From contig JBIKWN010000030.1 of assembly GCA_044356295.1 (NCBI GenBank), positions 1-29,623 of the forward strand: DNA of 29,623 nt, given 5' to 3'. The notes beneath the pieces were generated by a model, which was not told the origin of the DNA, searched no databases, and saw nothing but the letters and a program-made list of their open reading frames with translations. Made by a program: the position numbers and the translations under genes. Positions 6,290 to 20,709 of this stretch are shown here, piece by piece. The DNA is from Bdellovibrionota bacterium. GTDB lineage: Bacteria; Bdellovibrionota_C; UBA2361; JBIKWN01. Every line of letters starts with the position of its first letter. Within the stretch, counting starts at the first letter, position 1.

Positions 6290-8674
6290 ATGAGCCGCGA
6301 CGATACCCTTACTGCTAAAACTCTTCTGTTTGTAAACTCTGGAGGAAAGAAGAAAAAATTTACTCTTGAAATCGCAAGACGAACAGGCGCACAAATCATC
6401 CTCCTTGGCCCTGAACTTGATGTTCCTAAAAAATTAGTAGATTTCTTTATTCAAGTTGATAACTACAATCACACTGAATGTATAGAGAAACTACAAACAT
6501 TTCTCGAAGAGCACCCTAGTATTTATATCGATGGTGCAATTACTTTTTGGGAAGACGATGTGCCACTTCTTTCTAGACTTTGTGAGCATTTTGGATTTAT
6601 TGGAAATAGCTATCAAACTGCAATAAATACTCGGAATAAATACGAGATGAGGAAGCGCCTTCGAGAAACTGGACTTGGCAGTCCTGAGTTCCATCTTTTG
6701 CAGTCAAAGGATGACCTAGAAGATGCAATGCATTTTATTGGGTTTCCCGCTGTGATGAAGCCTGTATGGGGAGCTGATAGCCAGTTCGTCGTTATGGTGA
6801 AAGATGAAGAGGAAGCAAAGGCGACCTATGAGTATTTTCAGAAAAACTGTAATGAACAGTACGATCCAATATTTAAATACAATGAAAATCAGTATCTGTA
6901 TGAAGAGTATTTAGATGGAACAGAGATTAGCCTTGAGTGCTATTCCCAGTTTGGAATTCCTCATGTCCTAGGAATAAATGAGAAGCAACCGATTCAGCCT
7001 CCTTATTTTATTGAATACGGCGATATTGCCCCTGCACGTCTTACGGAAGATATAGAACAAGAAGTCATTAAGCTTGCAGAGAGTTCACTGATTGCCCTGG
7101 GTGTTCAAAATTCACTTTCACATATTGAATTAAAGATTACATCAGACGGACCTAAACTTATCGAAGTAGCCTCTAGAATGGGTGGTGATGATATTTACCT
7201 AAACGTAAAAACCGTTTGGGGCTTTGACATGCTAAAGATTGGATTCCAAGTTGCTTGTGGAATCAAAGTTGAAAATAAGAAAAGAGAAGCACATGACATT
7301 GTAATTTGTCGTTATTTTATTCCAGAGTACTCAGGAATAATTACAAATATCTCTGGCACAAAAGAATGCAAAGAGATGAAAAACGTCCTCGATCTTGTGA
7401 TATCAAAAGACGTAGGTGATGCCGTTTTCGTTCCACCAGAAGGTTACGAAAATATGGGATGGATTGTCGCAAAGGGGCGGTCTTACCAGGAAGCTGAAAC
7501 TGTGATGGACCGAGCGATAAAGAAGCTTGAAATCAACGTAACAAGATTTCGAAAAGGATCGAATCTTAAGCCAAGAATTGGTACTGAATCATTAAGCACT
7601 GCACCACTCATAAGACGTCAATTAATGCGAGCTGCAAAAATTCAGAGAATTAGAAGTTTTGATGCATTAAAAAAACTTCATATCGGAATACTTGCAAACA
7701 CGCTTTCAGTGAGCGAAGGGGATAAGCTTTCAAAAAATAGTGATTGCGAACTTATAAAATCACTACTCGATGCTCGCGGATATAAAGTTTCTTTGTTTGA
7801 TATGAGTGAATCACCAATTCCACTCAGAAAATTACAAAGAATGAATCTCGATTTTGTTCTAAACCTGTGTGAGTCAATCTATAACTCAATGAGTATGGAG
7901 CCACACGCTGCAGCACTCATGGATCTTTTGCAGATCCCTTATACTGGGTCATCTTCAGCTACTATTTCACAGTGCATGGATAAGATTACTGTTAAAAAAC
8001 TTTTTCAGTACCATGAAATTCCAACTCCAGCATGGGACTATGTCTATAGTATGGATGAGGTTATTCGTGACGATCTGCATTTTCCACTTATTGTAAAACC
8101 AGCAGATACGGATAATTCATACGGTATCACAAATCAGTCCGTCGTGAAGAACCGTGCTGAGCTTAAAAAACAACTCCATGCGGTTATTGTCGGACTTGGA
8201 CGTCCTGCATTAATTGAAGAGTTTATCGATGGCGATGAATTTGACGTTTGTATTCTTGGAAGTGGTGAAGATGTTCGTGTGCTGCCACCTATTCGTTCAA
8301 TATTTGATAGAATGCCAAAAGGGTACTGGCATATATATGCTCAATCTTCAAAAACTGAGAATGGGGATCCTGCATATGATGCGATTAGAGTTGAGAAGCA
8401 CCCAAAGATTTCAAAAAAGTTAGCATCGCTTATTAATAATATTGCACTCGATGTGTATTCTCTTTTTGATTGTCTTGATTACGGTAAAGTTGAGATTAGA
8501 GTAGACAAGCAAGGAAATCCTTACGTTTTAGAAGTCAATCCAAATCCTCCGATTGGAAAAGAAGACTTTATGGCAATTGCTGCTAAAACTGATGGATATG
8601 ATTATGGTGATTTTATTGAAGAGATATTATACCGAGCCGTCGATCGATACCGTCAAAAGCCACTCGTTCGGTAA
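6290..8674 (+). CDS. Tandem double ATP-grasp ligase: N-terminal L-amino-acid-ligase-like module and C-terminal D-Ala-D-Ala-ligase-like module
   Basis: Module 1: RNKYEMR, FPAVMKP, EEYLDGTEISLE, HIELK, IEVASRMGG. Module 2: DFVLNLCE, IPYTGS, MDKITVK, FPLIVKP, LIEEFIDG, LEVNPNP. Confidence 0.85.
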   Translation: MSRDDTLTAKTLLFVNSGGKKKKFTLEIARRTGAQIILLGPELDVPKKLVDFFIQVDNYNHTECIEKLQTFLEEHPSIYIDGAITFWEDDVPLLSRLCEHFGFIGNSYQTAINTRNKYEMRKRLRETGLGSPEFHLLQSKDDLEDAMHFIGFPAVMKPVWGADSQFVVMVKDEEEAKATYEYFQKNCNEQYDPIFKYNENQYLYEEYLDGTEISLECYSQFGIPHVLGINEKQPIQPPYFIEYGDIAPARLTEDIEQEVIKLAESSLIALGVQNSLSHIELKITSDGPKLIEVASRMGGDDIYLNVKTVWGFDMLKIGFQVACGIKVENKKREAHDIVICRYFIPEYSGIITNISGTKECKEMKNVLDLVISKDVGDAVFVPPEGYENMGWIVAKGRSYQEAETVMDRAIKKLEINVTRFRKGSNLKPRIGTESLSTAPLIRRQLMRAAKIQRIRSFDALKKLHIGILANTLSVSEGDKLSKNSDCELIKSLLDARGYKVSLFDMSESPIPLRKLQRMNLDFVLNLCESIYNSMSMEPHAAALMDLLQIPYTGSSSATISQCMDKITVKKLFQYHEIPTPAWDYVYSMDEVIRDDLHFPLIVKPADTDNSYGITNQSVVKNRAELKKQLHAVIVGLGRPALIEEFIDGDEFDVCILGSGEDVRVLPPIRSIFDRMPKGYWHIYAQSSKTENGDPAYDAIRVEKHPKISKKLASLINNIALDVYSLFDCLDYGKVEIRVDKQGNPYVLEVNPNPPIGKEDFMAIAAKTDGYDYGDFIEEILYRAVDRYRQKPLVR

Positions 8675-8683
8675 AAGATATCA

Positions 8684-9238
8684 GTGAAAAATCCTTGGAC
8701 AAAATTATCTTCGAAAGTTGTTTATCAAAACCCTTGGATTACTGTTCGCGAAGATCAAGTTTTAAAGCCAAACGGTGAACCTGGGATTTACGGTGTTGTT
8801 GAACCTCGGATTGCGACAGGGGTTGTGGCAATGACAGAAAAACAAGAGATTTATCTTGTCGGTCAATATCGTTATCCAATGGATCTTTACTCTTGGGAGA
8901 TTCCAGAGGGCGGGACTGAAGTAGGTGAAGATCCTCTTGTCGCTATCAAAAGAGAGTTAAAAGAAGAAGCCGGCATTACTGCTAAAAACTGGAAACAGCT
9001 GGGTCATGAGCTGCACTTGAGTAACTGTTTTACAAATGAGCGAGCATATCTTTATTTAGCAACAGATTTAGAAGAGGGTATGAGTTCTCCAGAAGATACT
9101 GAAGTACTAACGGTGAAAAAAATGCCAATTAGCCAAGTATTTTCAATGATCCAGAAAGGCGAGATTTTTGATGCCATGACTGTCATGGGGGTGATGATGG
9201 TGATGTCCACTCTCGGTAAAAAGGGTAATTTTTACTGA
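8684..9238 (+). CDS. NUDIX hydrolase (ADP-ribose pyrophosphatase-like)
   Basis: Nudix box GGTEVGEDPLVAIKRELKEEAG, with upstream QYRYP and WEIP. GTG start. Confidence 0.9.
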   Translation: MKNPWTKLSSKVVYQNPWITVREDQVLKPNGEPGIYGVVEPRIATGVVAMTEKQEIYLVGQYRYPMDLYSWEIPEGGTEVGEDPLVAIKRELKEEAGITAKNWKQLGHELHLSNCFTNERAYLYLATDLEEGMSSPEDTEVLTVKKMPISQVFSMIQKGEIFDAMTVMGVMMVMSTLGKKGNFY

Positions 9239-9454: not shown

Positions 9455-11470
9455 GTGCCGACTAAATCTGTTATGGGAATTAGGGAACAATTAAAAAACT
9501 TTTTGAGTAAAACTGCTGTACCAACTGACAACCTAAGTGATCTTGAGCTTTCTCGCTTAGTTGCAATTGAATTAGGTCTCCCTTATTACGAAACAGCACC
9601 AGAAGATATGCCTCATTTGAGTGGCGTACTCGAGCATCCAGTTGTTCGTGCAGTTCCAATTTCTAAATGGAAAGAGCTTACTGCTATACCAAAAGAGATC
9701 ACAGCTGATTCTGCAACAGTCCTCGTGGCTAATCCATTTCAACTAGAGCTTCAAAGAGAGTTAACATTTCTTTTAGGAGGAAAAACTGTAGAGATAGTAA
9801 TGTCATCTGAGCAAAGTATCTCATCGATTCTTAATTGTTTTGGAAAAGTTCAAAATACGAATGAGCTTAAATTACAACTCGATGATAGTGAGCTTATATT
9901 TACTCAAAAGCCTGTAGTTGAAGCCACACATGAATCAACGATTAAGCCTGAAGATGTTTCTGCTCCTCTTGTCATTAGACTTGTCAATAAAATATTTTCA
10001 GATGCACTTGATTCTGGAACAAGTGATATTCACTTGACTCCTACTCAAAAAAATCTCGAAGTAAAAATTCGTATCGATGGAATTCTAAAAGATCTACTGA
10101 CAGTACCTATAAACTTAAAACTTACTGTAACTGCTAGAATTAAACTTCTTTGTGGGATGGATATATCTGAAAGAAGAAAACCACAGGATGGACGACTTCG
10201 TTTAAAAACTGGCTCACAACCCGTAGATTTAAGAGTTTCTTGTGTTCCAAGTGTATACGGCGAGACGATTGTCATACGGCTTTTATCAACAAAAATTTCA
10301 CAGGTTGAACTTGATAGCCTTGGCATGGATAAGAACCTCGTTGGTAAAGTCGAGCGAGCTTTGAAAAGTTCATCAAAAGTAGTGCTTGTTGCAGGACCGA
10401 CAGGTTCAGGAAAAACAAGTACTCTTTACGCAGCACTCTCGCATATTGCAGATGGAACCAAAAATATTATTACCATTGAAGATCCAGTTGAATATCGCAT
10501 CGAAGGTATTACTCAGATGCAGGTAAATAATAAAACTGATATGACTTTTGCAAATGGTCTACGGTCAGCGCTTCGACAAGATCCAGATGTCATTATGGTC
10601 GGTGAAATTAGAGATTTGGAAACTGCGCAAATATCAATGCAAGCTGCTCAGACAGGGCACCTTGTATTATCAACGATTCATACAAATACAGCCGAAGGAT
10701 CTATTACACGATTACTTGACCTTGGAGTTCCGGCATATCTTATTGCATCTTCAGTCACTGCAATTATAGCTCAAAGACTTGTTCGACGATTACAACCAGA
10801 TGGGACACTTTCAGGAAGAGTTGGTATTTTTAGCATGATAGAAATCACCCCTGAAGTTGTTGATCTAATCCGTTGTGGAGCAGGAGAGCATGAAATTATA
10901 AACAGAGCTTCTTTACAAGGATTTGTCCCACTTTGGCAACATGGACAATCTTTAATTGACCAAGGGGTAACCACCTACGAGGAAGTTGAAAGAGTTCTTG
11001 GTCCAAAGCCAAGTCTAGATCATCAAACTAACAATCAAACACGTATCAACGTCAATATGTCGCAAGGAAATGTTACACATAATCCTATCGCTAAAAGAAA
11101 GATTCTATTAGTGGAAGATGATGATACTTCTCGCACAGTACTCTCAATGTTATTTGAAGATGAGTTTTATGAAGTGATTCAAGCCTCAAATGGGCATGAA
11201 GGGCTCGAGAAAGTTTATGCTCACCATCCTGAAATCATTGTCAGTGACCTGATGATGCCAAGAATGTCGGGACTTGAAATGCTTCAAAAATTAAAAGGTG
11301 ACACTCGTTTATCGTCTATACCTGTTTTGATGCTTACAGCTGCAGCTCATGAAGAAAACGAAATCGATTTAATCAAACACGGTGCTGATGATTTTGTTAG
11401 TAAATCAGCTGATTCGAAGGTATTGCTGGCTCGGGTTGAGCGTATATTAAACAGAGCTTCTCATAGCTAA
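9455..11470 (+). CDS. GspE/PilB-family secretion/pilus ATPase with C-terminal response-regulator receiver domain
   Basis: SDIHL, RIDG, ERRKPQDG, Walker A GPTGSGKTSTLY, TIEDPVE, LRQDPDVIMVGEIRD, TGHLVLSTIHTN. REC domain: ILLVEDD, SDLMMPRMSG, LTA, GADDFVSK. Alternative start ATG 9473. Confidence 0.92.
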   Translation: MPTKSVMGIREQLKNFLSKTAVPTDNLSDLELSRLVAIELGLPYYETAPEDMPHLSGVLEHPVVRAVPISKWKELTAIPKEITADSATVLVANPFQLELQRELTFLLGGKTVEIVMSSEQSISSILNCFGKVQNTNELKLQLDDSELIFTQKPVVEATHESTIKPEDVSAPLVIRLVNKIFSDALDSGTSDIHLTPTQKNLEVKIRIDGILKDLLTVPINLKLTVTARIKLLCGMDISERRKPQDGRLRLKTGSQPVDLRVSCVPSVYGETIVIRLLSTKISQVELDSLGMDKNLVGKVERALKSSSKVVLVAGPTGSGKTSTLYAALSHIADGTKNIITIEDPVEYRIEGITQMQVNNKTDMTFANGLRSALRQDPDVIMVGEIRDLETAQISMQAAQTGHLVLSTIHTNTAEGSITRLLDLGVPAYLIASSVTAIIAQRLVRRLQPDGTLSGRVGIFSMIEITPEVVDLIRCGAGEHEIINRASLQGFVPLWQHGQSLIDQGVTTYEEVERVLGPKPSLDHQTNNQTRINVNMSQGNVTHNPIAKRKILLVEDDDTSRTVLSMLFEDEFYEVIQASNGHEGLEKVYAHHPEIIVSDLMMPRMSGLEMLQKLKGDTRLSSIPVLMLTAAAHEENEIDLIKHGADDFVSKSADSKVLLARVERILNRASHS

Positions 11471-11553
11471 TAATCTAGGGGACATGCCTCATGATTCCTT
11501 GTTCGGTACTTTGTGCTGACAGATGATTATTTAATCGCTATCATGAATAGGCT

Positions 11554-12285
11554 ATGGCTGATGAAACCCCAGCAATGACTCCTCAACAACGACTTCTTAC
11601 TGAGGGGGCTCAAAATCCGTTGGCGTTATATAAAGAGTTATCAGTCGGACAAGAAAACTCATTTTCTTATTTTCTTCTATTTGAGTTTTTAACAACTTTT
11701 ATCTCTGGCTTGCCTGGATTGTTAGGTTTTGGTTTCAGATCTGTTTTATATCCTCTTTTATTTAAATGTTGTGGAAAGCGCCCAGCTATCGGTAGAGGTG
11801 TTGTGCTGAGGAGAACTAGAAATATTTCATTAGGAAATAAAGTACTTATCGATGACTACGCTGCTATTGACGTAAGAGGACACGGATCCATTACTATTGG
11901 CAACAACGTCTCAATTGGAAGGCTCACCACAATAACTGCAAAAAATGGATCTATTACTTTAGAGTCTGGAGTTAATATTGGCTCCTATGCACGAATTGCA
12001 ACACAATCAAAAGTACATATTGGAGAAAGCACTTTAATAGCAGCATATGCATACATTGGTGCAGGGAATCATCAGCCTGGTGACCACGATACTCCACTGA
12101 TTGAACGCACTATGCAGATAAAGGGTGGCGTCTCTATCGGAAAAAATTGTTGGATTGGAGCAGGTGCGATGATTCTTGACGGCGTAACTATTGGGGACGG
12201 AGCAATTATTGGCGCACAAAGCCTTGTTAACAAAGATGTTCCTGCCGGAGTAACAGTTATTGGTACACCAGCAAAACCTTTATGA
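11554..12285 (+). CDS. Hexapeptide-repeat (left-handed beta-helix) acyltransferase, WcaF/MAT-like
   Basis: Repeated [LIV]G hexapeptides; GNH; IGKNCWIGAGAMILDGVTIGDGAIIGAQSLVNKDVP; GTPAK. Confidence 0.88.
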   Translation: MADETPAMTPQQRLLTEGAQNPLALYKELSVGQENSFSYFLLFEFLTTFISGLPGLLGFGFRSVLYPLLFKCCGKRPAIGRGVVLRRTRNISLGNKVLIDDYAAIDVRGHGSITIGNNVSIGRLTTITAKNGSITLESGVNIGSYARIATQSKVHIGESTLIAAYAYIGAGNHQPGDHDTPLIERTMQIKGGVSIGKNCWIGAGAMILDGVTIGDGAIIGAQSLVNKDVPAGVTVIGTPAKPL

Positions 12286-13073
12286 CAGTATATTCGGAAA
12301 AACGTTACCCTGTTTGGTTTATTGTTGTTGTTTCTATAACGACACTTCTTATAACGCTATACGCTGTCCGTCCAATTAATAGTCTAGTTCTTCCAAAAGA
12401 TGGCACGTATATAGGTAGTCTCTCAATGAGTGGATTGGACGAAGCGCCGTTTTTAGCTGAAATCGATCGTTCAAAAAATATTTTACAAATGACTTTTTTT
12501 CATCGAGATATTTCACCTCAAAAAAATGATCTTGTTGTAACACCATCATTATTTGGCACAAGTTTTAAACCACCTCGGATTCTTATTTTTGGTAAAGAGT
12601 ATAACTTTACTGGGAATTCTGTCTCTCAGGATGATGCAAAAGGATATCTTTCAAGTGATCGTGGACAATCAGTTGGACACTGGTATCTGAGGAAAGTGGC
12701 CTATTTACCTACTGTTAGTAAAGATACTGCATCCTCATATGTTACAACATGGAAGCAGTCTCAAGAGTTATTAAAGCTTAAAACAAAAGAGAACCATGAA
12801 TATGCACTATTAAAAACTGATCAACAGAAGTTAAAGGAAATCTTAGCGCAACAAAGTGCAATACAGGTTGAAGGCGGGCGAAAACTAGCTCGAGCCCGTC
12901 GCGAGCTTGATGAGAAAAGTCTTGCAAAGAAAAAAACAACTGCTGAGCTTTCGGTTTTGCGAGGGCGTATTATATTGGCGCAAAAACTATCTCCTCAGGG
13001 TAAATTCTTGGCTCTTTCAAGGATTTCACTTAAAGAAGAAGCTTCTTGGTTTTTTCAGGGAGCTAAAAAATGA
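12282..13073 (+). CDS. Hypothetical membrane-anchored protein with C-terminal coiled coil
   Basis: N-terminal hydrophobic helix (VWFIVVVSITTLLITLYAV), charged heptad-like C-terminus, and ATGA overlaps at both ends. Confidence 0.7.
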   Translation: MTVYSEKRYPVWFIVVVSITTLLITLYAVRPINSLVLPKDGTYIGSLSMSGLDEAPFLAEIDRSKNILQMTFFHRDISPQKNDLVVTPSLFGTSFKPPRILIFGKEYNFTGNSVSQDDAKGYLSSDRGQSVGHWYLRKVAYLPTVSKDTASSYVTTWKQSQELLKLKTKENHEYALLKTDQQKLKEILAQQSAIQVEGGRKLARARRELDEKSLAKKKTTAELSVLRGRIILAQKLSPQGKFLALSRISLKEEASWFFQGAKK

Positions 13074-13744
13074 TAAGAGCATCTTTATCACTTTTAATGA
13101 TATTTTTACTTTGTACGACTTCTGAAGTGGTTGCCCAAGAAAAAAAATCCTTCCTTTTTTTTGAAATACCTGAAGAAAAGCAGCCTTTAGGTCAGTGTCG
13201 AATTTATTGGTGGAACGATGATCTAACAGATGGATTTGAAACTGAAGTTGAAATAGCTGAAGGGGCTCAAAGTGTCTATGGAATAGCGCTACGTCCTGAA
13301 GTGCTAAAAGAAGATGTTCTTTCATACGGATTAAAATGCGAGTTTAACGGACAGACAAAACCAATCTTCATAACGGGGGGACGTACCATTACTGAACGTG
13401 AAGTAAATCGTCTCAGTTCTGAGAGAAAGGTGTTTGTTTCTGATATCCAAGATGCTCGAAAGAGCAAAGAGTCGCTTGCACTTGAGACACGAATTGCTCG
13501 CTCTCAGCTTTTATCATTAATTCCTACAGACGATATTATTAATCTGAGACAAGAAATAGAGAGATTAACTCAAGATACTGCAATGCTTGTCGCGGAAAAA
13601 AAGGTACTTCAAGCAGCCCTTGAAAATTTAGATTTTAAGAAAACTGAATCCGACGTATTCTTTGCTTCTGAAAAACTTTTACAGCAATACCTTGAAGAAC
13701 AACGACCAAAACCAAAGCAGCCTGTCAAAAAGTCAAAAGGATAG
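13070..13744 (+). CDS. Hypothetical exported protein with C-terminal coiled coil
   Basis: Signal-peptide-like N-terminus (MIRASLSLLMIFLLCTTSEVVA), helical charged C-terminus, ATGA overlap with the upstream gene. Confidence 0.7.
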   Translation: MIRASLSLLMIFLLCTTSEVVAQEKKSFLFFEIPEEKQPLGQCRIYWWNDDLTDGFETEVEIAEGAQSVYGIALRPEVLKEDVLSYGLKCEFNGQTKPIFITGGRTITEREVNRLSSERKVFVSDIQDARKSKESLALETRIARSQLLSLIPTDDIINLRQEIERLTQDTAMLVAEKKVLQAALENLDFKKTESDVFFASEKLLQQYLEEQRPKPKQPVKKSKG

Positions 13745-13970
13745 TATCCAGCAGTTTGCCGTCATGGTAAGGCAAACGAACATGTCTGCTGTAGTACTAT
13801 TTTTAATTGAAGCGCATAAACCGCTACGTTCGATTTTCCGGCAATGTTTCATTGCATGCTCTCCTTTCACCAAAAGCTCCAATGTTGCAAGCACTATTCT
13901 TACTCAACTGCTTTTACTAACTACAAATCCTAAGGCTCTAGACTATTTCGTAGCGGAGCTTGAACAATGA
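13662..13970 (+). CDS. Small hypothetical protein (FLIEAHKPL motif)
   Basis: Fills the gap between operon genes and its stop overlaps the next start (ATGA). Start uncertain (TTG 13662 or ATG 13764). Confidence 0.6.
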   Translation: MLLKNFYSNTLKNNDQNQSSLSKSQKDSIQQFAVMVRQTNMSAVVLFLIEAHKPLRSIFRQCFIACSPFTKSSNVASTILTQLLLLTTNPKALDYFVAELEQ

Positions 13971-14695
13971 ATGTAGAGCATGCCAATAGTTATACAGCTC
14001 TCTTTCTTTTTATAAGTTTTTGCGTTGTTTTGTATTTTCGAAAGTTTAATCAAAACATTACGGTAAGACACATTGCAGCGATAGAAATGATCTCTTACGG
14101 AGTTGCACGTGCTGCAGAAGCAGGAAAATCAATAATATTTACTACGGGCATTTCTACTTTAGGTCCAGTATTTTTTGCATGTTTAACCCTTCTTAAGGGA
14201 ATTCTTCAAAAGGCAAAACAACTTCATGTACCAGTTATACTCCCTCAAAATTCTCCTGAATGTGTTGCATACTTAGAGTCGTTTCTTGAGCAGAATGAAT
14301 TTCATGATAGTTCACCAGCACCCTCTGTACAATTTCTTTCAGAAGATCAGTTTGCATTTGCGTCTGGTTATATGGGCTTAGTTCACAGACATCAAACCGA
14401 GACTGCCTTTTTATTCGGACAGTTTGCAGGTGAATCTTTGATATTGAGTGAGGCAGGGCGTCAAGTAAATGCTTTTCAAATCGCAGGTAGTGTAAGCCCA
14501 GAGCAAGTGCCATTTTTTATCTGTACCTGTGATTATACGTTAATAGGAGAAGAGCTTTTTGCGGCAGGAGCATATCTGAGTGGTGATTCAAGTGACCTAG
14601 GGAATTTGCGTTCTCAAGATATTTTGAAACTTCTTTTGATGCTTATTATTGTTGTAGGAATTATCTGGACATATTTTTCTAAGTATTTTCTATGA
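13967..14695 (+). CDS. Conserved membrane protein, DUF6754-like
   Basis: N- and C-terminal TM helices around a soluble domain with VRHIAAIE...GVARAAEAGK, QFAFASG, ESLILSEAG, QIAG, QVPFFICTCDYTLIGEELFAAGAYLS. The family name is from recall. Confidence 0.7.
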   Translation: MNVEHANSYTALFLFISFCVVLYFRKFNQNITVRHIAAIEMISYGVARAAEAGKSIIFTTGISTLGPVFFACLTLLKGILQKAKQLHVPVILPQNSPECVAYLESFLEQNEFHDSSPAPSVQFLSEDQFAFASGYMGLVHRHQTETAFLFGQFAGESLILSEAGRQVNAFQIAGSVSPEQVPFFICTCDYTLIGEELFAAGAYLSGDSSDLGNLRSQDILKLLLMLIIVVGIIWTYFSKYFL

Positions 14696-15582
14696 GACTG
14701 ACATCAGCCGTTACCTTTATATCAGGTCTGTATTTTGTTTTGTATTTCTTGATTCCTGAAGTCAAGCTGGAGCAGTGGGGTATTATCGCTCTTCATCCTA
14801 CAATAACTCAGGGGTATATCATTGTAGGAGTTATGGCATTTGGCGTTGGGTTAATTAACCTTAGCTTCGTTCATTTAAAAACAATCGCACTGTTGAAAAA
14901 AGATGCCATCTTTAGCGTAATCCTTTTATCTTCACTGATTGGAACTATCCTTTTCGGACTTGTTGATTGGTATCAAGAAAGAGCAGTTGCTCGGTTTTTT
15001 TTAAAAGCTCAAGTGTATCAAAGTTTTTTTGAAAAACATTCAGAAGAGATAAAGAAAGATTATTATCCTTTTATAAAAGAATTAGCAGTTGAGGCTTCGA
15101 ATATTGGATTTTCTGAAAGATACAGCAATGAAATCGTGAATCTTGAAAAAAGTATTACAGGAAGTGAAATTAGTCAGAAGTTAAATGAAATTTTACTAAA
15201 AAAAGATCAGTTCCAGGAAGCGGATAATACAGAAAGATTTGCTGCAAAAGTATCAAGATTCTTTAATGAAGGAATATTTATTCCTCTTGGCTCATCAATG
15301 TTTGCTCTTCTTTCATTTTATATAGCTTCGGCCGCATTTCGTGCGTTTCGGTTGCGTTCATTTGAAGCGACGCTATTAATGATAACAGCTGTTCTTGTTG
15401 TGTTTGGACAAGTTCCAATGATTGCTTCACATTGGGATGGGTTTCCGCTTATTCGGAACTGGCTTTTAACCGTTCCCAATACTGCCGCTTTTAGAGGAAT
15501 TTCATTTGGGGCGAGTATTGCTGGCTTAGTATTGGCAATCCGTGTTTGGCTTTCTATTGATAAAAATCAGGTAGGAGCATAA
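14692..15582 (+). CDS. Uncharacterised multi-pass membrane protein
   Basis: About 6 TM segments; conserved-looking PLGSSMFALLSFYIASAAFRAFRLRSFEA and WLLTVPNTAAFRGI. Confidence 0.8.
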   Translation: MRLTSAVTFISGLYFVLYFLIPEVKLEQWGIIALHPTITQGYIIVGVMAFGVGLINLSFVHLKTIALLKKDAIFSVILLSSLIGTILFGLVDWYQERAVARFFLKAQVYQSFFEKHSEEIKKDYYPFIKELAVEASNIGFSERYSNEIVNLEKSITGSEISQKLNEILLKKDQFQEADNTERFAAKVSRFFNEGIFIPLGSSMFALLSFYIASAAFRAFRLRSFEATLLMITAVLVVFGQVPMIASHWDGFPLIRNWLLTVPNTAAFRGISFGASIAGLVLAIRVWLSIDKNQVGA

Positions 15583-16437
15583 GTGACTCGATCATCCCGA
15601 ATAATTTATATTTTACTTTTTCTAACGCTGCTGATTCCTCTCATGAGTTCGTTGTCTATTACGCCAGCGTTTAATTCTTCAGCGAAAAAAACGTATGATT
15701 ACATAGAATCGTTACCACAAAACCAAAATAATTTTGCTTTACTATTCTTAGATTATGGTCCAGGTACTCAGGCAGAGAATCAACCTCAAGCGTCAGTTAT
15801 TTTTGAGCATCTCCTAAGAAAAAAAATTCCAACAATTCTATTAACGACATACTCATTGGGGGAAAAGTTCACTCAAGAAACGGTTAAAGAAGTATTACGT
15901 CGAATGAAATTAGAAGCTCCTGATACAGAGTATGTGTACGGTGTAGATTATGTAGTTCTTGGTTATAGACCGGGGGCAAATTTATTTCTGCAGGGTATAT
16001 CACAATCAAATAAATTAGCTGAGTTTTTAGGTAAGGATATTAAAGGAATTCCACTTGTTCACTATGACGCCTTTAAAAATCTTACAACACTTTCACAAGT
16101 TTCAACTATCGGTCAGTTTACTGGACTTGTTGGTTTTTTAAGCTCATATATCCAGTTTTTAACAGTGCAAGGTCAAACAGCACCACTCATTCACGGGTGC
16201 ACCAGTATTACTATTCCAGAAACCTATATTTATGCTGATACTGGTCAACTTCGAGGTACATTAGAAGGTGTTTCGGGTGCTGCGTATTACTCTCATATGC
16301 TACAAACGAATTTCAAAAATCGACAAACTGATGATTCATTGGTCATTAATACAGCTCTCGGACTTGGACAGATATTAATACTGATTCTCATCGTTGCAGG
16401 GAATCTCATTGAGTTTTTTGGAAGGCGAATAGTGTGA
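15583..16437 (+). CDS. Uncharacterised membrane protein with large extracytoplasmic domain
   Basis: N- and C-terminal TM helices; DYGPGTQAENQP, YGVDYVVLGY, TGQLRGTLEGVSGAAYY. GTG start immediately after the upstream stop. Confidence 0.8.
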   Translation: MTRSSRIIYILLFLTLLIPLMSSLSITPAFNSSAKKTYDYIESLPQNQNNFALLFLDYGPGTQAENQPQASVIFEHLLRKKIPTILLTTYSLGEKFTQETVKEVLRRMKLEAPDTEYVYGVDYVVLGYRPGANLFLQGISQSNKLAEFLGKDIKGIPLVHYDAFKNLTTLSQVSTIGQFTGLVGFLSSYIQFLTVQGQTAPLIHGCTSITIPETYIYADTGQLRGTLEGVSGAAYYSHMLQTNFKNRQTDDSLVINTALGLGQILILILIVAGNLIEFFGRRIV

Positions 16438-17105
16438 GTATAGATTCATTTACAATCTTTTTTGCTGGAATAGGTACTCTTGCGATCTTTTCTTTTCTTA
16501 TCTCAGAAAATCGATTTTATCGCTCTTTTGAGTATCTATTTATCGGAGTTGCGGCAGGATATGTGCCACTTGTGACTTTCAAGACGTTTCTTTGGACTCA
16601 AGTTTTAGAGCCAATGGTTGGAGGCGATAGGATTTTGCTTCCAGATGGAACTTTTTCGAGTGAGCCATTAACGGTCAATCCATTTTGGTATTTAATTCCT
16701 ATAATTTTTGGACTGCTTTACTATACTGTTTATATCCCACGATACAGGTGGTTAGCAGCGCTTGTTATAGCATTTTCTCTTGGAGCGTCTGCTGGATTAA
16801 GTTTTCAAGGATTTTTTGCCGAAGTCGTTCCGCAAGTAATCAAAAGTTTTGATTCGGGAATATTATTTGCCTCTATACTTCTTTCAACAATGTACTATTT
16901 CTTTTTTACCTTTCGAAGAAAACAAAAAGGTTTAGGAAGTGCAGTAGCCTGGTATGGAAGAACCTGGATGATGGTTTGTTTTGGAGCATTTTTTGGCTCT
17001 ACCATAATGGCTCGCCTAGCATTACTGATAGAGCGTTTACAGTTTTTAGTATCAAGTTGGTACCCCGAGATAATAAAATTAGGCAAGGGTATCTATGGAG
17101 CGTGA
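16434..17105 (+). CDS. Uncharacterised multi-pass membrane protein
   Basis: TLAIFSFLISENRFYRSFEYLFIGVAAGY, YFFFT and GRTWMMVCFGAFFGSTIMARLALLIERLQFL. GTGA overlap. Confidence 0.8.
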   Translation: MSIDSFTIFFAGIGTLAIFSFLISENRFYRSFEYLFIGVAAGYVPLVTFKTFLWTQVLEPMVGGDRILLPDGTFSSEPLTVNPFWYLIPIIFGLLYYTVYIPRYRWLAALVIAFSLGASAGLSFQGFFAEVVPQVIKSFDSGILFASILLSTMYYFFFTFRRKQKGLGSAVAWYGRTWMMVCFGAFFGSTIMARLALLIERLQFLVSSWYPEIIKLGKGIYGA

Positions 17106-18687
17106 AGCTTGGGTAGTTACTGACTGCGGAAGTACAACATCAAAATCGATTGTTTTTTCGAATGATAATGGAAATTGGAGAATGATTGACTGGGCGGTAA
17201 GCCCAACAACGGTAGAGGCACCAACAGCAGATGTAACATATGGAGTAAAAAATTCATTTCAATCTTTAAACGAGAGAGAGGGGACAAAACTACTCTATAA
17301 TGAGTCCGGTTTCCCGAAAAACTTTCTTGCAACAAGCTCAGCTGGAGGAGGCCTTAGGGTTGCCGTCGTAGCTCTCACAAAAGAAATAACAGGTGAGTAT
17401 CTTATTGAAGCAGCACTACACGCGGGAGCAATTATTTCAGCAGTAATTTCTCTTGATGATAACGATTCAATGGATGTGCGAATTGAAAAACTTCGCGATG
17501 CAATGCCTGATATCTTAATTGTAGCAGCTGGATTTAAAAATTCAGTTCCAGCCGGGGTTATTGAATTGGTTGCACTTATCAAAGATGCAGCACTCGTGTC
17601 GCGTCTTGATGCATTGATAAAAATTCCATTAATTTTTGCGGGTTCTAAATATGTTACCCAGCAGCTAGATATTTTAAAAGAATCGTATGAGCTTTTTTCT
17701 GTTGAAACAATTGCAGTCTCTGCACGTGAAAAATCTTTGCTACCTACCGAAGAAAAAATTCATACTCTTTTTTTAGAATCAGTGATGGAGCATGCTCCTG
17801 GATACAAAAAACTACTTTCGCATGTATCTATACCTATTCTTCCAACGCCAGTGGCAGTATCAAAAATACTAGAAGCATATTCAATTCATAAATCCGAGAA
17901 ACTGTTATGTATAGATATGGGAGGAGCAACAACGGATATTTTTAGTACTGGTTTAACAGGAATTGATAGGACAGTTAGCTCAAATGTTGGAATGAGTTAC
18001 TCAAGCTACTATGTGTTTGAAAAAGTTGGTATTGCAGGATTTAGAAAGTATCTACCCTTACATATATCTGATGAACAGATTGAAGCATCAATCTTTAACA
18101 AAATGCTTCGTCCAACAACGATTCCATCTGATGCAAATGAACAGGAAATTGAATATGCGCTTTGTAGGCTGGGATTAGAAATTTCTTATACTTCACACGT
18201 AAAAATAATTAGTCGTGCACGGCAACAGAAAAATAAGCTTTCAATTGAAAATATCTTCTCTCAGAATAATCAAGTTGAATCTGCGTCGTATGACCGAATA
18301 ATTGCTTCTGGCGGAGTTTTTAGTCACTGTCCCAATCCCGACCTAATTCCTTGGATACTTGCTGATGGATTATCTTTATCAGGGATATCTGAAATCGTTG
18401 TCGATAAGGTTTTTATGCTGCCTCATCTAGGAATGCTTTATCAAATTCGGCCTGACGCTAGTATGCATATTCTTGAGCAAGACTGCTTAGGTGCAATCGG
18501 TATTTTTATTTCAATTAAAAAAAACGACGAAATAATTGTAAATTCAGAAAAATTAATCTTTAACAATAATCACAGAAGGCAAATCCTTGAGTTTAAAGAT
18601 GGAATATCGGTAATAAAATATAAACAGAAAGAAAAATATTTCTCTTTAAAGTTTAATAAAATTTATTTAGAAATTGTTGACTCATGA
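17095..18687 (+). CDS. glmL: Glutamate mutase L (GlmL/MutL)-family ASKHA-fold ATPase
   Basis: Phosphate-1 DCGSTTSK, SPTTVEAP, ATSSAGGGLR, PTPVAV, phosphate-2 DMGGATTDIFS, RTVSSNVGMSYS, IASGGVFSH. The symbol denotes the family, not a proven function. Confidence 0.8.
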   Translation: MEREAWVVTDCGSTTSKSIVFSNDNGNWRMIDWAVSPTTVEAPTADVTYGVKNSFQSLNEREGTKLLYNESGFPKNFLATSSAGGGLRVAVVALTKEITGEYLIEAALHAGAIISAVISLDDNDSMDVRIEKLRDAMPDILIVAAGFKNSVPAGVIELVALIKDAALVSRLDALIKIPLIFAGSKYVTQQLDILKESYELFSVETIAVSAREKSLLPTEEKIHTLFLESVMEHAPGYKKLLSHVSIPILPTPVAVSKILEAYSIHKSEKLLCIDMGGATTDIFSTGLTGIDRTVSSNVGMSYSSYYVFEKVGIAGFRKYLPLHISDEQIEASIFNKMLRPTTIPSDANEQEIEYALCRLGLEISYTSHVKIISRARQQKNKLSIENIFSQNNQVESASYDRIIASGGVFSHCPNPDLIPWILADGLSLSGISEIVVDKVFMLPHLGMLYQIRPDASMHILEQDCLGAIGIFISIKKNDEIIVNSEKLIFNNNHRRQILEFKDGISVIKYKQKEKYFSLKFNKIYLEIVDS

Positions 18688-19661
18688 TAACAATTCAAAC
18701 TCTACAAAAAAAATATGTTGTTCCGAAATCTGTTAAGAAATCAGAGCTTCTTCAGGGGGCAGTATGCTCAATTAAAGCGGGGAATCTTCTGTGGAAAGAA
18801 GTGCAACCAGGGAAGCTTCATATTCTATCTTTAGCTCAGTTTTTTGATATTGAAGCAAAAAAGAGTCTTCAGTTGATGAATAGGAAAGTAGGAGAAATGC
18901 TCAGGAAGGGTGATGTTATTGCAAGGAAGAAATCGCTCTTATCATTTTTCAATCAGGAGCTAAAAGCTCCTACCAGTGGGGTTTTTGAAGATTTTCATGA
19001 ACCATCTGCTAGTGTTTTTTTTCGAGAATTACCAAAAGAAATTTTATTTCATTCACCAATGTCTGGAGATCTCCATGAAAATGACAACTCTATAACAATT
19101 GAATCCTTTGGACTTTGTATACAAGGTGCGTACGGTGAAGGCAGTCAGTGTTTTGGAGTATTTCAATGGAGTGACGATTTCTTAAAAAATCCTCATCAAT
19201 ATGAAGCCCCATTAGTATTAGGATTGAAGAATTCAGTAATTGAACCAGTTATCAGCCTATCAAACAAAATTAAGGCTGTAATAGCAGCATCACTATCTCT
19301 TTCAGATATTAAAATGCTTAATGACAGGGGCGTAAGTGTAGTCATTACCGAAGGAGTTGGTTCAGTTACGATGAGTAATGTATTAATGGGTGTCTTAGAC
19401 AAGTGTATAGGTAAGGAGGTCTCGGTTTTTCCTCAGACAAAAGTATATGCAGGAGCTATTCGTCCAACTATTTTTTGCTCTGACGTATCAGAACTTAGGA
19501 TACCTGAGAAAAAGAATATTTATCGTGGAATTCGAACTCCATTTTTAGGCGTCTATGGAATTTTAGAAAATGCAATCCAAGATTCGCTTCAATTAAAAAA
19601 CGAGCAAGGTCAAAGCATCCTAATTCAAAAACAGAATTCCTCTTCAGTTTTTCTTGAGTAA
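18684..19661 (+). CDS. Uncharacterised GlmL-associated protein with barrel-sandwich-hybrid-like motif
   Basis: KVGEMLRKGDVIA...LKAPTSG (biotinyl/lipoyl-hybrid-like), IQGAYGEG, VITEGVG...M, AGAIRP. ATGA overlap with glmL. Confidence 0.7.
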   Translation: MITIQTLQKKYVVPKSVKKSELLQGAVCSIKAGNLLWKEVQPGKLHILSLAQFFDIEAKKSLQLMNRKVGEMLRKGDVIARKKSLLSFFNQELKAPTSGVFEDFHEPSASVFFRELPKEILFHSPMSGDLHENDNSITIESFGLCIQGAYGEGSQCFGVFQWSDDFLKNPHQYEAPLVLGLKNSVIEPVISLSNKIKAVIAASLSLSDIKMLNDRGVSVVITEGVGSVTMSNVLMGVLDKCIGKEVSVFPQTKVYAGAIRPTIFCSDVSELRIPEKKNIYRGIRTPFLGVYGILENAIQDSLQLKNEQGQSILIQKQNSSSVFLE

Positions 19662-19662
19662 T

Positions 19663-20709
19663 TTACGCGGGATACCCGTTATATCGTTGACGAGTTCTTC
19701 TAGCGTTAAAACAGACTCCGTAGGCAGATTGTAAATCAAATGTAATGACGGTCATCTTGCCTCCACGAAGTTGTTCTCTAGGAAGCGAAACACCTAGTGT
19801 AAAACTTCTCCATGGGGTAATTTTTGCAAGATTTTTTGTAGTCGTTGATGACATTCTTTTTACAGACCCATTCGACCAGCGTGTATACATGTGCTTATCA
19901 AAGCCACTCATTAATGACATTAATACTAATGCTTCTTTAAATTTTCCATCTCCGAGAGGTTTTAATGATGAAGCTTTATTTCCTTTGTAAACACTTTCGT
20001 TAATTTGCACTGAAAGCGTAAAACCAGAAGCACGGTCTGATGCTGAAATTTTAGATAGATCCAAACTCATCACAACAAGATAGTTACTTTTCTTATCACA
20101 AGCGTCTTTTATAACATGTGATACCGCTACAAGAGTGCTTAGTGAAGAGTTTGAGCCACCTCCCGAGTAATTCCTCCAAGCGTCACCAAAAAAATAAGTA
20201 CACAACTCTTCGTCATCTCTGTGTGGAATATTGTCATTCTCTATTAGGTACGTGTATTCATAATAATCACGATATTCCGCTAGGGTATAGCCATTACACA
20301 TAGTTGCTGGACCAGATGAGGTATCTTGCGAAGAGCCAATAGTTAACTTTTTAGTAAATTTTCCACCAGGGGTTGCCAATTCTTGAATATAATTTATCTT
20401 AGACGATGCTTTTAATGCATTTTCAATACTCATTGCTTTTCTAAAACCAGCTGTATTTGCTGTAATAGTAGTTTTACCTGGTGCTTTAATTTCAAGATTT
20501 AAAGTTGAGGTTTCTCTCGCTTTCGAAAAGAAAACAAGATTTATTTTCTTTGTAGTTTCTTGTGGCTGAAAAACTATTTCATTTACTTTGCCAAGTGTAA
20601 TTGAAACATTTCTTTCTTGGGTTGATGCATCAGCAGTGAAGAAGAGAGTTGAAAAAAGTACGGTTAGAAAGAAGCAGTTTAGAGTCGAAGGATTATACTT
20701 AATTTTCAT
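19663..20709 (-). CDS. Hypothetical exported protein
   Basis: 348-aa ORF with a signal-peptide-like N-terminus ending in TADA. No family recognised. Convergent with the GlmL operon, stops 1 nt apart. Confidence 0.7.
   Translation of the reverse strand: MKIKYNPSTLNCFFLTVLFSTLFFTADASTQERNVSITLGKVNEIVFQPQETTKKINLVFFSKARETSTLNLEIKAPGKTTITANTAGFRKAMSIENALKASSKINYIQELATPGGKFTKKLTIGSSQDTSSGPATMCNGYTLAEYRDYYEYTYLIENDNIPHRDDEELCTYFFGDAWRNYSGGGSNSSLSTLVAVSHVIKDACDKKSNYLVVMSLDLSKISASDRASGFTLSVQINESVYKGNKASSLKPLGDGKFKEALVLMSLMSGFDKHMYTRWSNGSVKRMSSTTTKNLAKITPWRSFTLGVSLPREQLRGGKMTVITFDLQSAYGVCFNARRTRQRYNGYPA

Follow-up and report, generated by a model that had tools for sequence, protein, structure and literature searches.

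Why should an ATPase of the MutL/GlmL family, whose classical role is tied to B12-dependent mutases, be encoded in one tight cluster with four membrane proteins? The question arises from contig JBIKWN010000030.1 of a Bdellovibrionota bacterium (assembly GCA_044356295.1; genome completeness 93.6%), of which positions 1 to 29,623 are called the window below. Seven genes, here named A to G, occupy positions 13662-19661 of its forward strand. An original prediction, made from the letters of this DNA, had taken them for a membrane machine in which the ATPase does something other than reactivate a mutase. Our analyses indicate that the seven genes probably form one conserved machine of two modules, in which a cytoplasmic ATPase unit, F-G(-A), would drive the membrane module B-C-D-E to act on the cell envelope.

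Organization and conservation of the seven-gene cassette

All seven open reading frames (ORFs) of the original prediction were recovered on the forward strand: A (13662-13970), a small protein of at most 102 amino acids (aa) whose start is uncertain; B (13967-14695), a DUF6754 protein of 242 aa; C (14692-15582), a polytopic membrane protein; D (15583-16437), an alpha/beta domain between two transmembrane helices; E (16434-17105), again a polytopic membrane protein; F (17095-18687), an ASKHA-fold ATPase of the PF13941 (MutL/GlmL) family with 530 aa; and G (18684-19661), the partner of F, with 325 aa and three domains. The tight junctions that had been described follow from these coordinates, with overlaps of 4 nucleotides (nt) at A/B, B/C, D/E, and F/G (the ATGA of A/B was also read directly in the sequence), a spacing of 0 nt at C/D, and an overlap of 11 nt at E/F. 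Since the conserved core of A begins upstream of its first internal ATG (alignment A7), a TTG start, or one nearby, is plausible, and A would then overlap the preceding gene. Profile searches with each ORF assigned Pfam families only to B (DUF6754, PF20539; E-value 1e-59, 202.2 bits versus a gathering score of 27, profile positions 15-248 of 257) and to F; for A, C, D, E, and G, the library scans returned no Pfam or NCBIfam family.

The gene neighborhood was then compared across genomes. In species-representative genomes, 590 of 602 pattern matches encode a relative of F, and the best 80 of these 590 loci were kept, many of them on short contigs. These 80 loci span many phyla, and profiles built from the window proteins detect G in 62 of them, A in 47, B in 45, C in 44, and D and E in 41 each. 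When only the 36 loci with 9 kb or more on either side of F are counted, G is present in 33, a complete B-E set in 25, A in 23, and all seven genes in 21. The order of the genes differs between lineages: ABCDEFG in Bdellovibrionota, Binatia, and a Syntrophobacterales metagenome-assembled genome; AFGBCDE in Nitrospira, Planctomycetes, and others; FGABCDE in loci of the Marinimicrobia/Fidelibacterota type; AFG and BCDE separated by an insert of 2.3-3.7 kb in Elusimicrobia; and, in Zixibacteria, Ignavibacteria, and Calditrichaeota, BCDE in two or three tandem copies that diverge from F..G. Such differences speak for selection to keep the gene set together and against an order that was simply inherited. 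All-against-all clustering of the ORFs revealed no further family shared by more than 10 of the 80 loci, except antisense shadow ORFs.

The families also co-occur when they are split between loci, so that the set holds together both through rearrangement and at a distance. When the F locus has no B, a DUF6754 gene is found elsewhere in 5 of 5 and in 26 of 27 genomes, including all 11 full-flank loci that lack B-E, and A, B, C, and D sit together in genomes whose DUF6754 gene lies away from F. Likewise, G is encoded elsewhere in four of the five genomes whose F has no G neighbor. In the order to which the window belongs, DUF6754 is present in 58 of 61 genomes (38 of the 39 of good quality) and in none of 14 model-organism controls. 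Gene fusions connect members within each module: two F-G proteins (859 and 1011 aa) and one D-E protein (571 aa, from Zixibacteria) were detected.

Copy numbers add a further aspect. In four genomes of the Zixibacteria/Ignavibacteria type, a single F is accompanied by 4-6 DUF6754 (B) genes and 4-5 copies of D; a fifth genome encodes three F proteins, of which two are F-G fusions, alongside seven B and seven D genes. Extra complete B-C-D-E modules, in tandem or dispersed, occur in the regions fetched. One F versus several modules fits an energizing unit shared by substrate-specific membrane modules, and not a filament-anchor pair or a dedicated enzyme chaperone.

The ATPase F

F matches the Pfam family MutL (PF13941) over profile positions 2-450 of 450 (E-value 3.7e-73, 247.3 bits versus a gathering score of 27) and is the sole PF13941 gene in its genome. 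The two phosphate loops that had been reported, DCGSTT and DMGGATTD, were both read in the translation, and the loops are invariant in 17 homologues. All three ASKHA motifs are present, namely phosphate-1 at D10-T15 (DxGxT), phosphate-2 at D274-D281 (DxGGxT), and adenosine at S405-V408 (GGV-type), and residues D10, G12, T14, T15, D274, G276, G277, T279, T280, D281, and S405-G407 do not vary among the 17 homologues. F is, on these motifs, a predicted ATPase with all of its phosphate-1, phosphate-2, and adenosine elements intact. A profile search against solved structures returned a single marginal and unrelated match.

Membership of the wider family does not make F a GlmL. GlmL (NF040745), Or-4 (NF040744), and TIGR01319 rank on top of the NCBIfam matches, all well under their cut-offs: F scores 147.7 bits against GlmL (cut-off 475; two typical orthologues 242.4 and 215.6), 126 bits against Or-4 (cut-off 600; orthologues 221.6 and 207), and 109.4 bits against TIGR01319 (cut-off 204.05; orthologues 172.7 and 154.8). 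F also has a C-terminal extension, being 530 aa long here and about 580-640 aa in relatives, for a profile of about 450-460 positions. Because it fails every curated GlmL-type cut-off as well as the test of genomic context, F was not filed as GlmL. More than 6,300 of 8,000 scored candidates are significant relatives of F; most have about 580-640 aa and carry the label "glutamate mutase L", in Oligoflexia, Bdellovibrionota, Planctomycetes, WOR-3, Dadabacteria, and further groups. JGI labels relatives "TIGR01319 family" despite sub-cut-off scores. Thousands of F proteins are thus annotated as "glutamate mutase L" or "methylaspartate mutase", a wrong functional label for the F clade.

Relationship with B12-dependent mutases

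One alternative is the classical role: F would reactivate or chaperone a B12-dependent mutase whose gene lies elsewhere, and the membrane genes would be neighbors with no part in it. Its arguments are the PF13941 membership of F, the GlmL and Or-4 profiles as best NCBIfam matches, and the content of the genome itself, which has two PF01642 methylmalonyl-CoA-mutase-type genes and three B12-binding domains on other contigs. Near the cassette, as had been noted, there is no mutase or B12-binding subunit, either among its own genes or among its neighbors (12 window ORFs scanned), and GlmE (PF06368) has no match in the genome. The description of F as an "orphan" is relative only, given the two mutase-type genes on other contigs; because of the latter, this genome alone cannot settle the question of a mutase link.

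Other genomes are more informative. Eight genomes of the order carry DUF6754 without a PF01642 mutase. In five of these eight, each 94-97% complete, the sole B12-binding match above cut-off lies in an ORF of 1230-1345 aa, the size of a methionine synthase, and F lies within a few kb of DUF6754 on the same contig. Among 94 co-directional neighbors scanned in other loci (of 109 selected), no mutase was found, the aminomutase families OraS/OraE and KamD/KamE being outside this search, and no mutase family recurs. One B12-related gene was observed in an Elusimicrobia locus (L029), where the insert between G and B (12915-16510) contains a B12-binding radical-SAM gene, which speaks for the classical role, together with a gene for a 737-aa PMT-like (GT-C) membrane glycosyltransferase. 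Against the classical role stand the scores of F and its typical orthologues, far under the GlmL, Or-4, and TIGR01319 cut-offs, the genomes just described, and the linkage, co-occurrence, and complex model that tie F to B-E. A link to B12-dependent mutases is not supported by these searches, and F does not appear to be a reactivase of such an enzyme. The cassette occurs without a PF01642 mutase and shows no strict co-occurrence with PF01642, in agreement with the proposal that the ATPase has another job; the classical role is already contradicted by this distribution, and we consider it extremely improbable.

Membrane proteins B, C, D, and E

Topologies were derived from a hydropathy scan and the positive-inside rule. 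The scan agrees with the prediction of four membrane proteins, one of them DUF6754-like, finding two to three hydrophobic segments in B, which is the DUF6754 protein, two in D, and several each in C and E. B would consist of a transmembrane helix, a cytoplasmic Rossmann-like alpha/beta domain, and a second transmembrane helix. Its structure model (pLDDT 90.0, pTM 0.82) resembles generic doubly wound alpha/beta folds with Z values of 9.5-10.9, with MT0777, sirtuins, halves of glycosyltransferases, and transhydrogenase dIII tied. In the ESM Atlas, B matches other DUF6754 clusters only and D matches unnamed clusters only. Homologues of B carry N-terminal extensions annotated as PKD, He_PIG, PQQ or WD40 propeller, or Fn3, which, given the topology derived for B, would face outward. 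A further variant was seen in locus L100 (7321-9708, reverse strand), a 795-aa DUF6754 protein with a C-terminal Peptidase_S49 (SppA/NfeD-like) domain, which by its position would likewise face outward, and no adjoining C, D, or E gene.

C contains an invariant motif, ...FxxxxxxxRxFR...E, within a hydrophobic stretch, and in Bdellovibrionota it has a soluble insert of about 100 aa. In D, the two transmembrane helices flank an alpha/beta domain of about 220 aa that is predicted to be extracytoplasmic by the positive-inside rule. E has the conserved motifs YFFF..., G..FG.T.MAR, and L..GR. Sequence profiles detected no meaningful solved relative of B, C, D, or E, and profile-profile comparison with hhalign gave no sign that B is related to D (probability 7.8) or C to E (probability 0.4).

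The partner protein G and the small protein A

The barrel-sandwich-hybrid-like motif noticed earlier in G is borne out by its structure model (pLDDT 86.7), in which residues of about 43-117 align with NqrA (Z 8.3) and RnfC (Z 8.1) over 63-65 residues, and by a Nitrospira orthologue that matches Pfam RnfC_N (27 bits versus a cut-off of 25.6). The middle part of G (about 143-267) is a swivelling beta/beta/alpha domain that aligns over 99-119 residues with Enzyme I, rifampin phosphotransferase, and pyruvate phosphate dikinase (Z 8.7-9.1 and 6.9-7.9) and over 114 residues with the diol dehydratase reactivase DdrA (Z 8.0, root-mean-square deviation 2.8). A KOW/SH3-like domain (about 277-325, Z about 7-8) follows, and among solved structures the sequence profile of G weakly matches KOW domains only. 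All of these Z values lie in a range where the fold alone can be claimed. The G of the window is diverged and shortened, with 19-26% identity to orthologues (alignment A2).

The middle domain raises the possibility of phosphotransfer or group translocation, in which F would be a kinase and the swivelling domain of G would carry the group to a substrate of the membrane module, as in the phosphotransferase system and in enzymes using phosphoenolpyruvate (PEP). Besides the likeness to phosphohistidine domains, many ASKHA enzymes are kinases, and tandem BCDE arrays adjoin a pyruvate phosphate dikinase gene in two genomes. However, no His occupies an invariant or nearly invariant position when G sequences are aligned, which would speak against a phosphocarrier role of G; Pfam PEP-utilizers (PF00391) matches neither G nor an orthologue. 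The conserved GATQ[IV]RAG of G has Ile or Val at what we take, by placing the motifs by eye, to be the position of the catalytic His in the TSH motif of PEP-utilizing enzymes. The swivelling fold, moreover, is also found in proteins that are not phosphocarriers, the diol dehydratase reactivase being an example. We regard phosphotransfer as an improbable explanation.

A, for its part, had been described as a small soluble protein. Small it is; the hydropathy scan found no hydrophobic segment in A (or in G), its conserved helical core is moderately hydrophobic, and A may be associated with the membrane rather than soluble. A travels with either F-G or B-E. A gap of ~800 nt between F and G is filled, in 10 loci of the Zixibacteria, Ignavibacteria, and Calditrichaeota type (L022, L028, L051, L087, L088, L090, and L093 among them), by members of a family of about 260 aa that matches nothing in Pfam; A was found in none of the loci with such an arrangement, and this family may replace it.

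Predicted docking of F on B

A complex of F (residues 1-495), G, and B (residues 30-207, the scored partner) was modelled. The cytoplasmic domain of B docks on F with ipSAE values of 0.77, 0.76, and 0.77 in three runs, versus 0.00 for the best of three controls, with at least 80% contact agreement between runs and a partner pLDDT of at least 82. In the calibration of the method, 116 of 157 solved complexes scored at least this high, as did 2 of 215 mismatched pairs; the present job, with its own alignments and three chains, differs in set-up from that calibration set. Replacement of F brought the score to 0.00, so the contact depends on F, and recall of a solved complex is an unlikely source of the result because solved structures include no relative of B and, for F, nothing beyond the unrelated match. 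The contact involves F residues 94-99, 120-123, 145-154, 207, and 210 and B residues 40-54, 82-88, and 170, to which G adds two residues. Together with a synteny that is kept where PF01642 mutases are absent, this model supports the original prediction.

An actin-like fold docked on a membrane protein also calls to mind a cytoskeletal or positioning element, in which F would polymerize like MreB, FtsA, or MamK and B-E would serve as its membrane anchor. The superfamily architecture of F and its modelled place on the cytoplasmic domain of a membrane protein, comparable to PilM and FtsA with their partners, are in keeping with this. We know of no PF13941 member that polymerizes, however, and F is accompanied by, and in two proteins fused to, a multidomain and enzyme-like partner; one F per 4-6 modules is also unlike what would be expected of an anchor and its filament. 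A cytoskeletal role is therefore given a small chance.

Flanking genes and possible substrates

The transcription unit probably begins upstream of A, at an acetyltransferase gene at 11554, and would run over 11554-19661. This start was chosen because the genes from 11554 onward overlap by 4 nt and because the best promoter-like site lies at 11516-11544. Promoter-like and terminator-like sites are no commoner here than in shuffled sequences, for which reason the operon limits rest on gene spacing. The upstream part (11554-13744, forward strand) comprises a WbbJ/WcaF-like hexapeptide O-acetyltransferase followed, with 4-nt overlaps, by two lineage-specific, N-terminally anchored coiled-coil proteins of 263 and 224 aa (12282-13744) that match no family. 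The two coiled-coil proteins were considered as members of the system and set aside, having no homologue in any of the loci fetched. Only A-G of the probable transcription unit appear to be kept elsewhere, and the upstream genes lie outside the conserved core.

Further upstream on the same strand, 9455-11470 encodes a protein of 671 aa in which an MshEN domain is fused to a type II/IV secretion ATPase (T2SSE) and, at the C-terminus, to a response-regulator receiver. This ATPase, too, was rejected as a member, as T2SSE genes precede the cassette in no loci other than those of the window, L002, L013 (where a receiver is again present), and L073. Before it come a 794-aa protein with two ATP-grasp modules (6290-8674, forward strand; ATP-grasp_4 plus LAL_C2, then Dala_Dala_lig_C) and a NUDIX gene (8684-9238). 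On the other side, a gene on the reverse strand (19663-20709) converges on G with a gap of 1 nt; its product of 348 aa begins with a signal-like segment and matches no family. An anti-phage defence role was also rejected: PADLOC defence models gave no credible match (six of the seven proteins none, C one at chance level with an E-value of 0.0015), and the presence of a single copy almost throughout the order is unlike what a defence island would show.

Neighbors in other loci give some hints about what the system might act on. PMT-like GT-C genes are inserted between G and B in four Elusimicrobia loci (L029, L037, L039, and L042); CdsA is encoded upstream of F in three loci, in two of which a DAGK-type kinase gene lies beside it; two GT2 genes and, in two loci, sugar nucleotidyltransferases are among the co-directional neighbors; and a hexapeptide acetyltransferase is found directly upstream of A in L073 as well as in the window. 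Other neighbors include genes for oligopeptide ATP-binding cassette (ABC) transport, histidine utilization, glycine cleavage, and lipoate ligase. Two side observations concern the tandem arrays. In L099 (4496-15495, Zixibacteria) and L107 (5612-20000, Ignavibacteriaceae), about three tandem B-C-D-E modules directly adjoin a pyruvate phosphate dikinase gene, and genes of histidine utilization (urocanase, imidazolonepropionase-like, and FTCD) lie near the modules in L107 and L102.

Some neighbors would suit yet another role, quality control of membrane or envelope proteins, in which F would act as a chaperone ATPase in the manner of Hsp70 and, together with G, would engage B-E in extracting or holding proteins or in handing them to proteases. 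F shares the ASKHA fold with Hsp70 and actin, and one copy of B carries a fused Peptidase_S49 domain. In L065, A is directly preceded by two SPFH/Band-7 genes, and in L092 a Peptidase_M48 gene follows F at a distance of two genes. The near-universal single copy in the order of the window also suggests a housekeeping task. Each of these genomic hints, however, is a single locus among the 94 neighbors or a single B copy, F is without an Hsp70 substrate-binding domain, and paralogous modules with varied PKD or propeller ectodomains fit substrate-specific modules better. Quality control is unlikely, in our estimation.

A probable two-module envelope machine

We thus return to the two-module machine as the preferred explanation. 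Its cytoplasmic module would be made of the ASKHA ATPase F, its obligate partner G, and the small protein A, and its membrane module of B, with the Rossmann-like domain in the cytoplasm, D, with the alpha/beta domain outside, and the polytopic C and E. F would dock through an inserted alpha/beta subdomain (about 94-154) on the first helix and the nearby surface of the cytoplasmic domain of B. The effects of ATP binding and hydrolysis by F, coupled to movements of the domains of G, could then be passed through the transmembrane helices to the extracytoplasmic parts, i.e., D and, in other lineages, the PKD, Fn3, Ig, or beta-propeller extensions of B. The outcome might be work on the envelope, either transport or a mechanical remodelling that acts on some lipid-linked or surface component, and a single F-G unit would serve several paralogous membrane modules. 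The gene set, its conservation and co-occurrence, the fusions, the folds of the domains, and the lack of mutases are findings of the analysis, and the contact of F with B comes from a model; the direction of energy flow, the mechanotransmission, and the envelope substrate are inferred. An action on some envelope component is the likeliest direction, and any specific substrate would be named with low confidence.

Several observations weigh against this reading. Two PF01642 genes and three B12-binding domains lie elsewhere in the genome, and L029 has its B12-binding radical-SAM gene between G and B. The flanking genes are heterogeneous, including those for proteases, SPFH proteins, peptide ABC transporters, histidine utilization, and glycine cleavage, and the hint of envelope or glycolipid substrates that they may give is weak, each case being lineage-specific. 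The generic Rossmann-like fold of the modelled B domain is tied with many unrelated families and is uninformative about a ligand. The contact between F and B is a modelled one, from a three-chain job unlike those of the calibration, and its interface is not significantly more conserved than the remainder: values are 0.81 versus 0.74 for B paralogues (p = 0.09), with p = 0.23 for B orthologues and p = 0.90 for F, in a check that included eight B paralogues obliged to share one F. Finally, the structure models cover B, G, and F-G-B, and a channel or transport path through the membrane module would be hypothetical.

If the reading is true, a membrane machine that is widespread among bacteria would couple energy by a principle so far undescribed. 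Within the parts of the literature available to us, no description of the seven-gene system or of DUF6754 was found. Its carriers include nitrite-oxidizing Nitrospira, anammox Scalinduaceae, Planctomycetes, Bdellovibrionota, Armatimonadota, Elusimicrobia, Zixibacteria, and Ignavibacteria, among which are cultured and environmentally important groups, and the compact proteins of the window, with 530 aa in F, 325 aa in G, and 242 aa in B, lend themselves to structural work.

Comparison with known systems

The nearest relatives of F are GlmL/MutL and the Or-4/OraF-type proteins of PF13941, which have in common with it the Pfam family and the ASKHA fold over F residues 7-464, with the phosphate loops and the adenosine motif. 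F differs from them in scoring a third to a half of the cut-offs of these families, in its C-terminal extension, and in its company: it is never beside GlmS/GlmE in the loci examined, and G and the B-E set are found in the same genome (when unlinked, DUF6754 in 26 of 27 and G in four of five). The N-terminal barrel-sandwich hybrid of RnfC and NqrA is common to G at about 43-117, over ~65 residues only, whereas Fe-S or flavin modules and the membrane subunits of Rnf or Nqr are absent here.

The reactivases of diol and glycerol dehydratases (DdrAB and PduGH) likewise combine an ASKHA ATPase with a swivelling beta/beta/alpha domain. In DdrA-DdrB, the ATPase acts on a partner domain of alpha/beta fold. 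In the present system, unlike in these reactivases, the swivelling domain is part of a separate protein, G, together with a barrel-sandwich and a KOW domain, the predicted client B lies in the membrane, and there is no cobalamin enzyme. PilM-PilN, FtsA, and MreB-RodZ provide cases of actin-fold proteins docked on the cytoplasmic parts of bitopic membrane proteins. F would resemble them as an ASKHA protein on the cytoplasmic part of a membrane complex that reaches the periplasm, the contact with B being a modelled one; they have no sequence or family relation to it, and B offers a folded Rossmann-like domain instead of a short peptide.

With respect to mechanism, two P-loop systems may serve as working analogies, although no component of the cassette matched ABC, FtsX, or ECF families and its ATPase has the ASKHA fold. 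In the mechanotransmission of type VII ABC proteins (MacB, FtsEX, and LolCDE), a cytoplasmic ATPase drives extracytoplasmic domains through few transmembrane helices, and in group II energy-coupling factor (ECF) transporters, one ATPase unit is common to several membrane modules. It is possible, and we propose it only tentatively, that the seven genes represent a new class of primary-active membrane machine, with an ASKHA-fold motor in place of a P-loop, P-type, or rotary ATPase, in which a single motor unit would serve interchangeable modules, and the outward-facing parts, namely D and B extensions of the PKD, Fn3, or propeller type, would select different envelope substrates. The "GlmL" of mutase operons might then be a specialized offshoot of a larger and older family, the activity shared by all its members being the ATP-driven manipulation of a Rossmann-like client domain.

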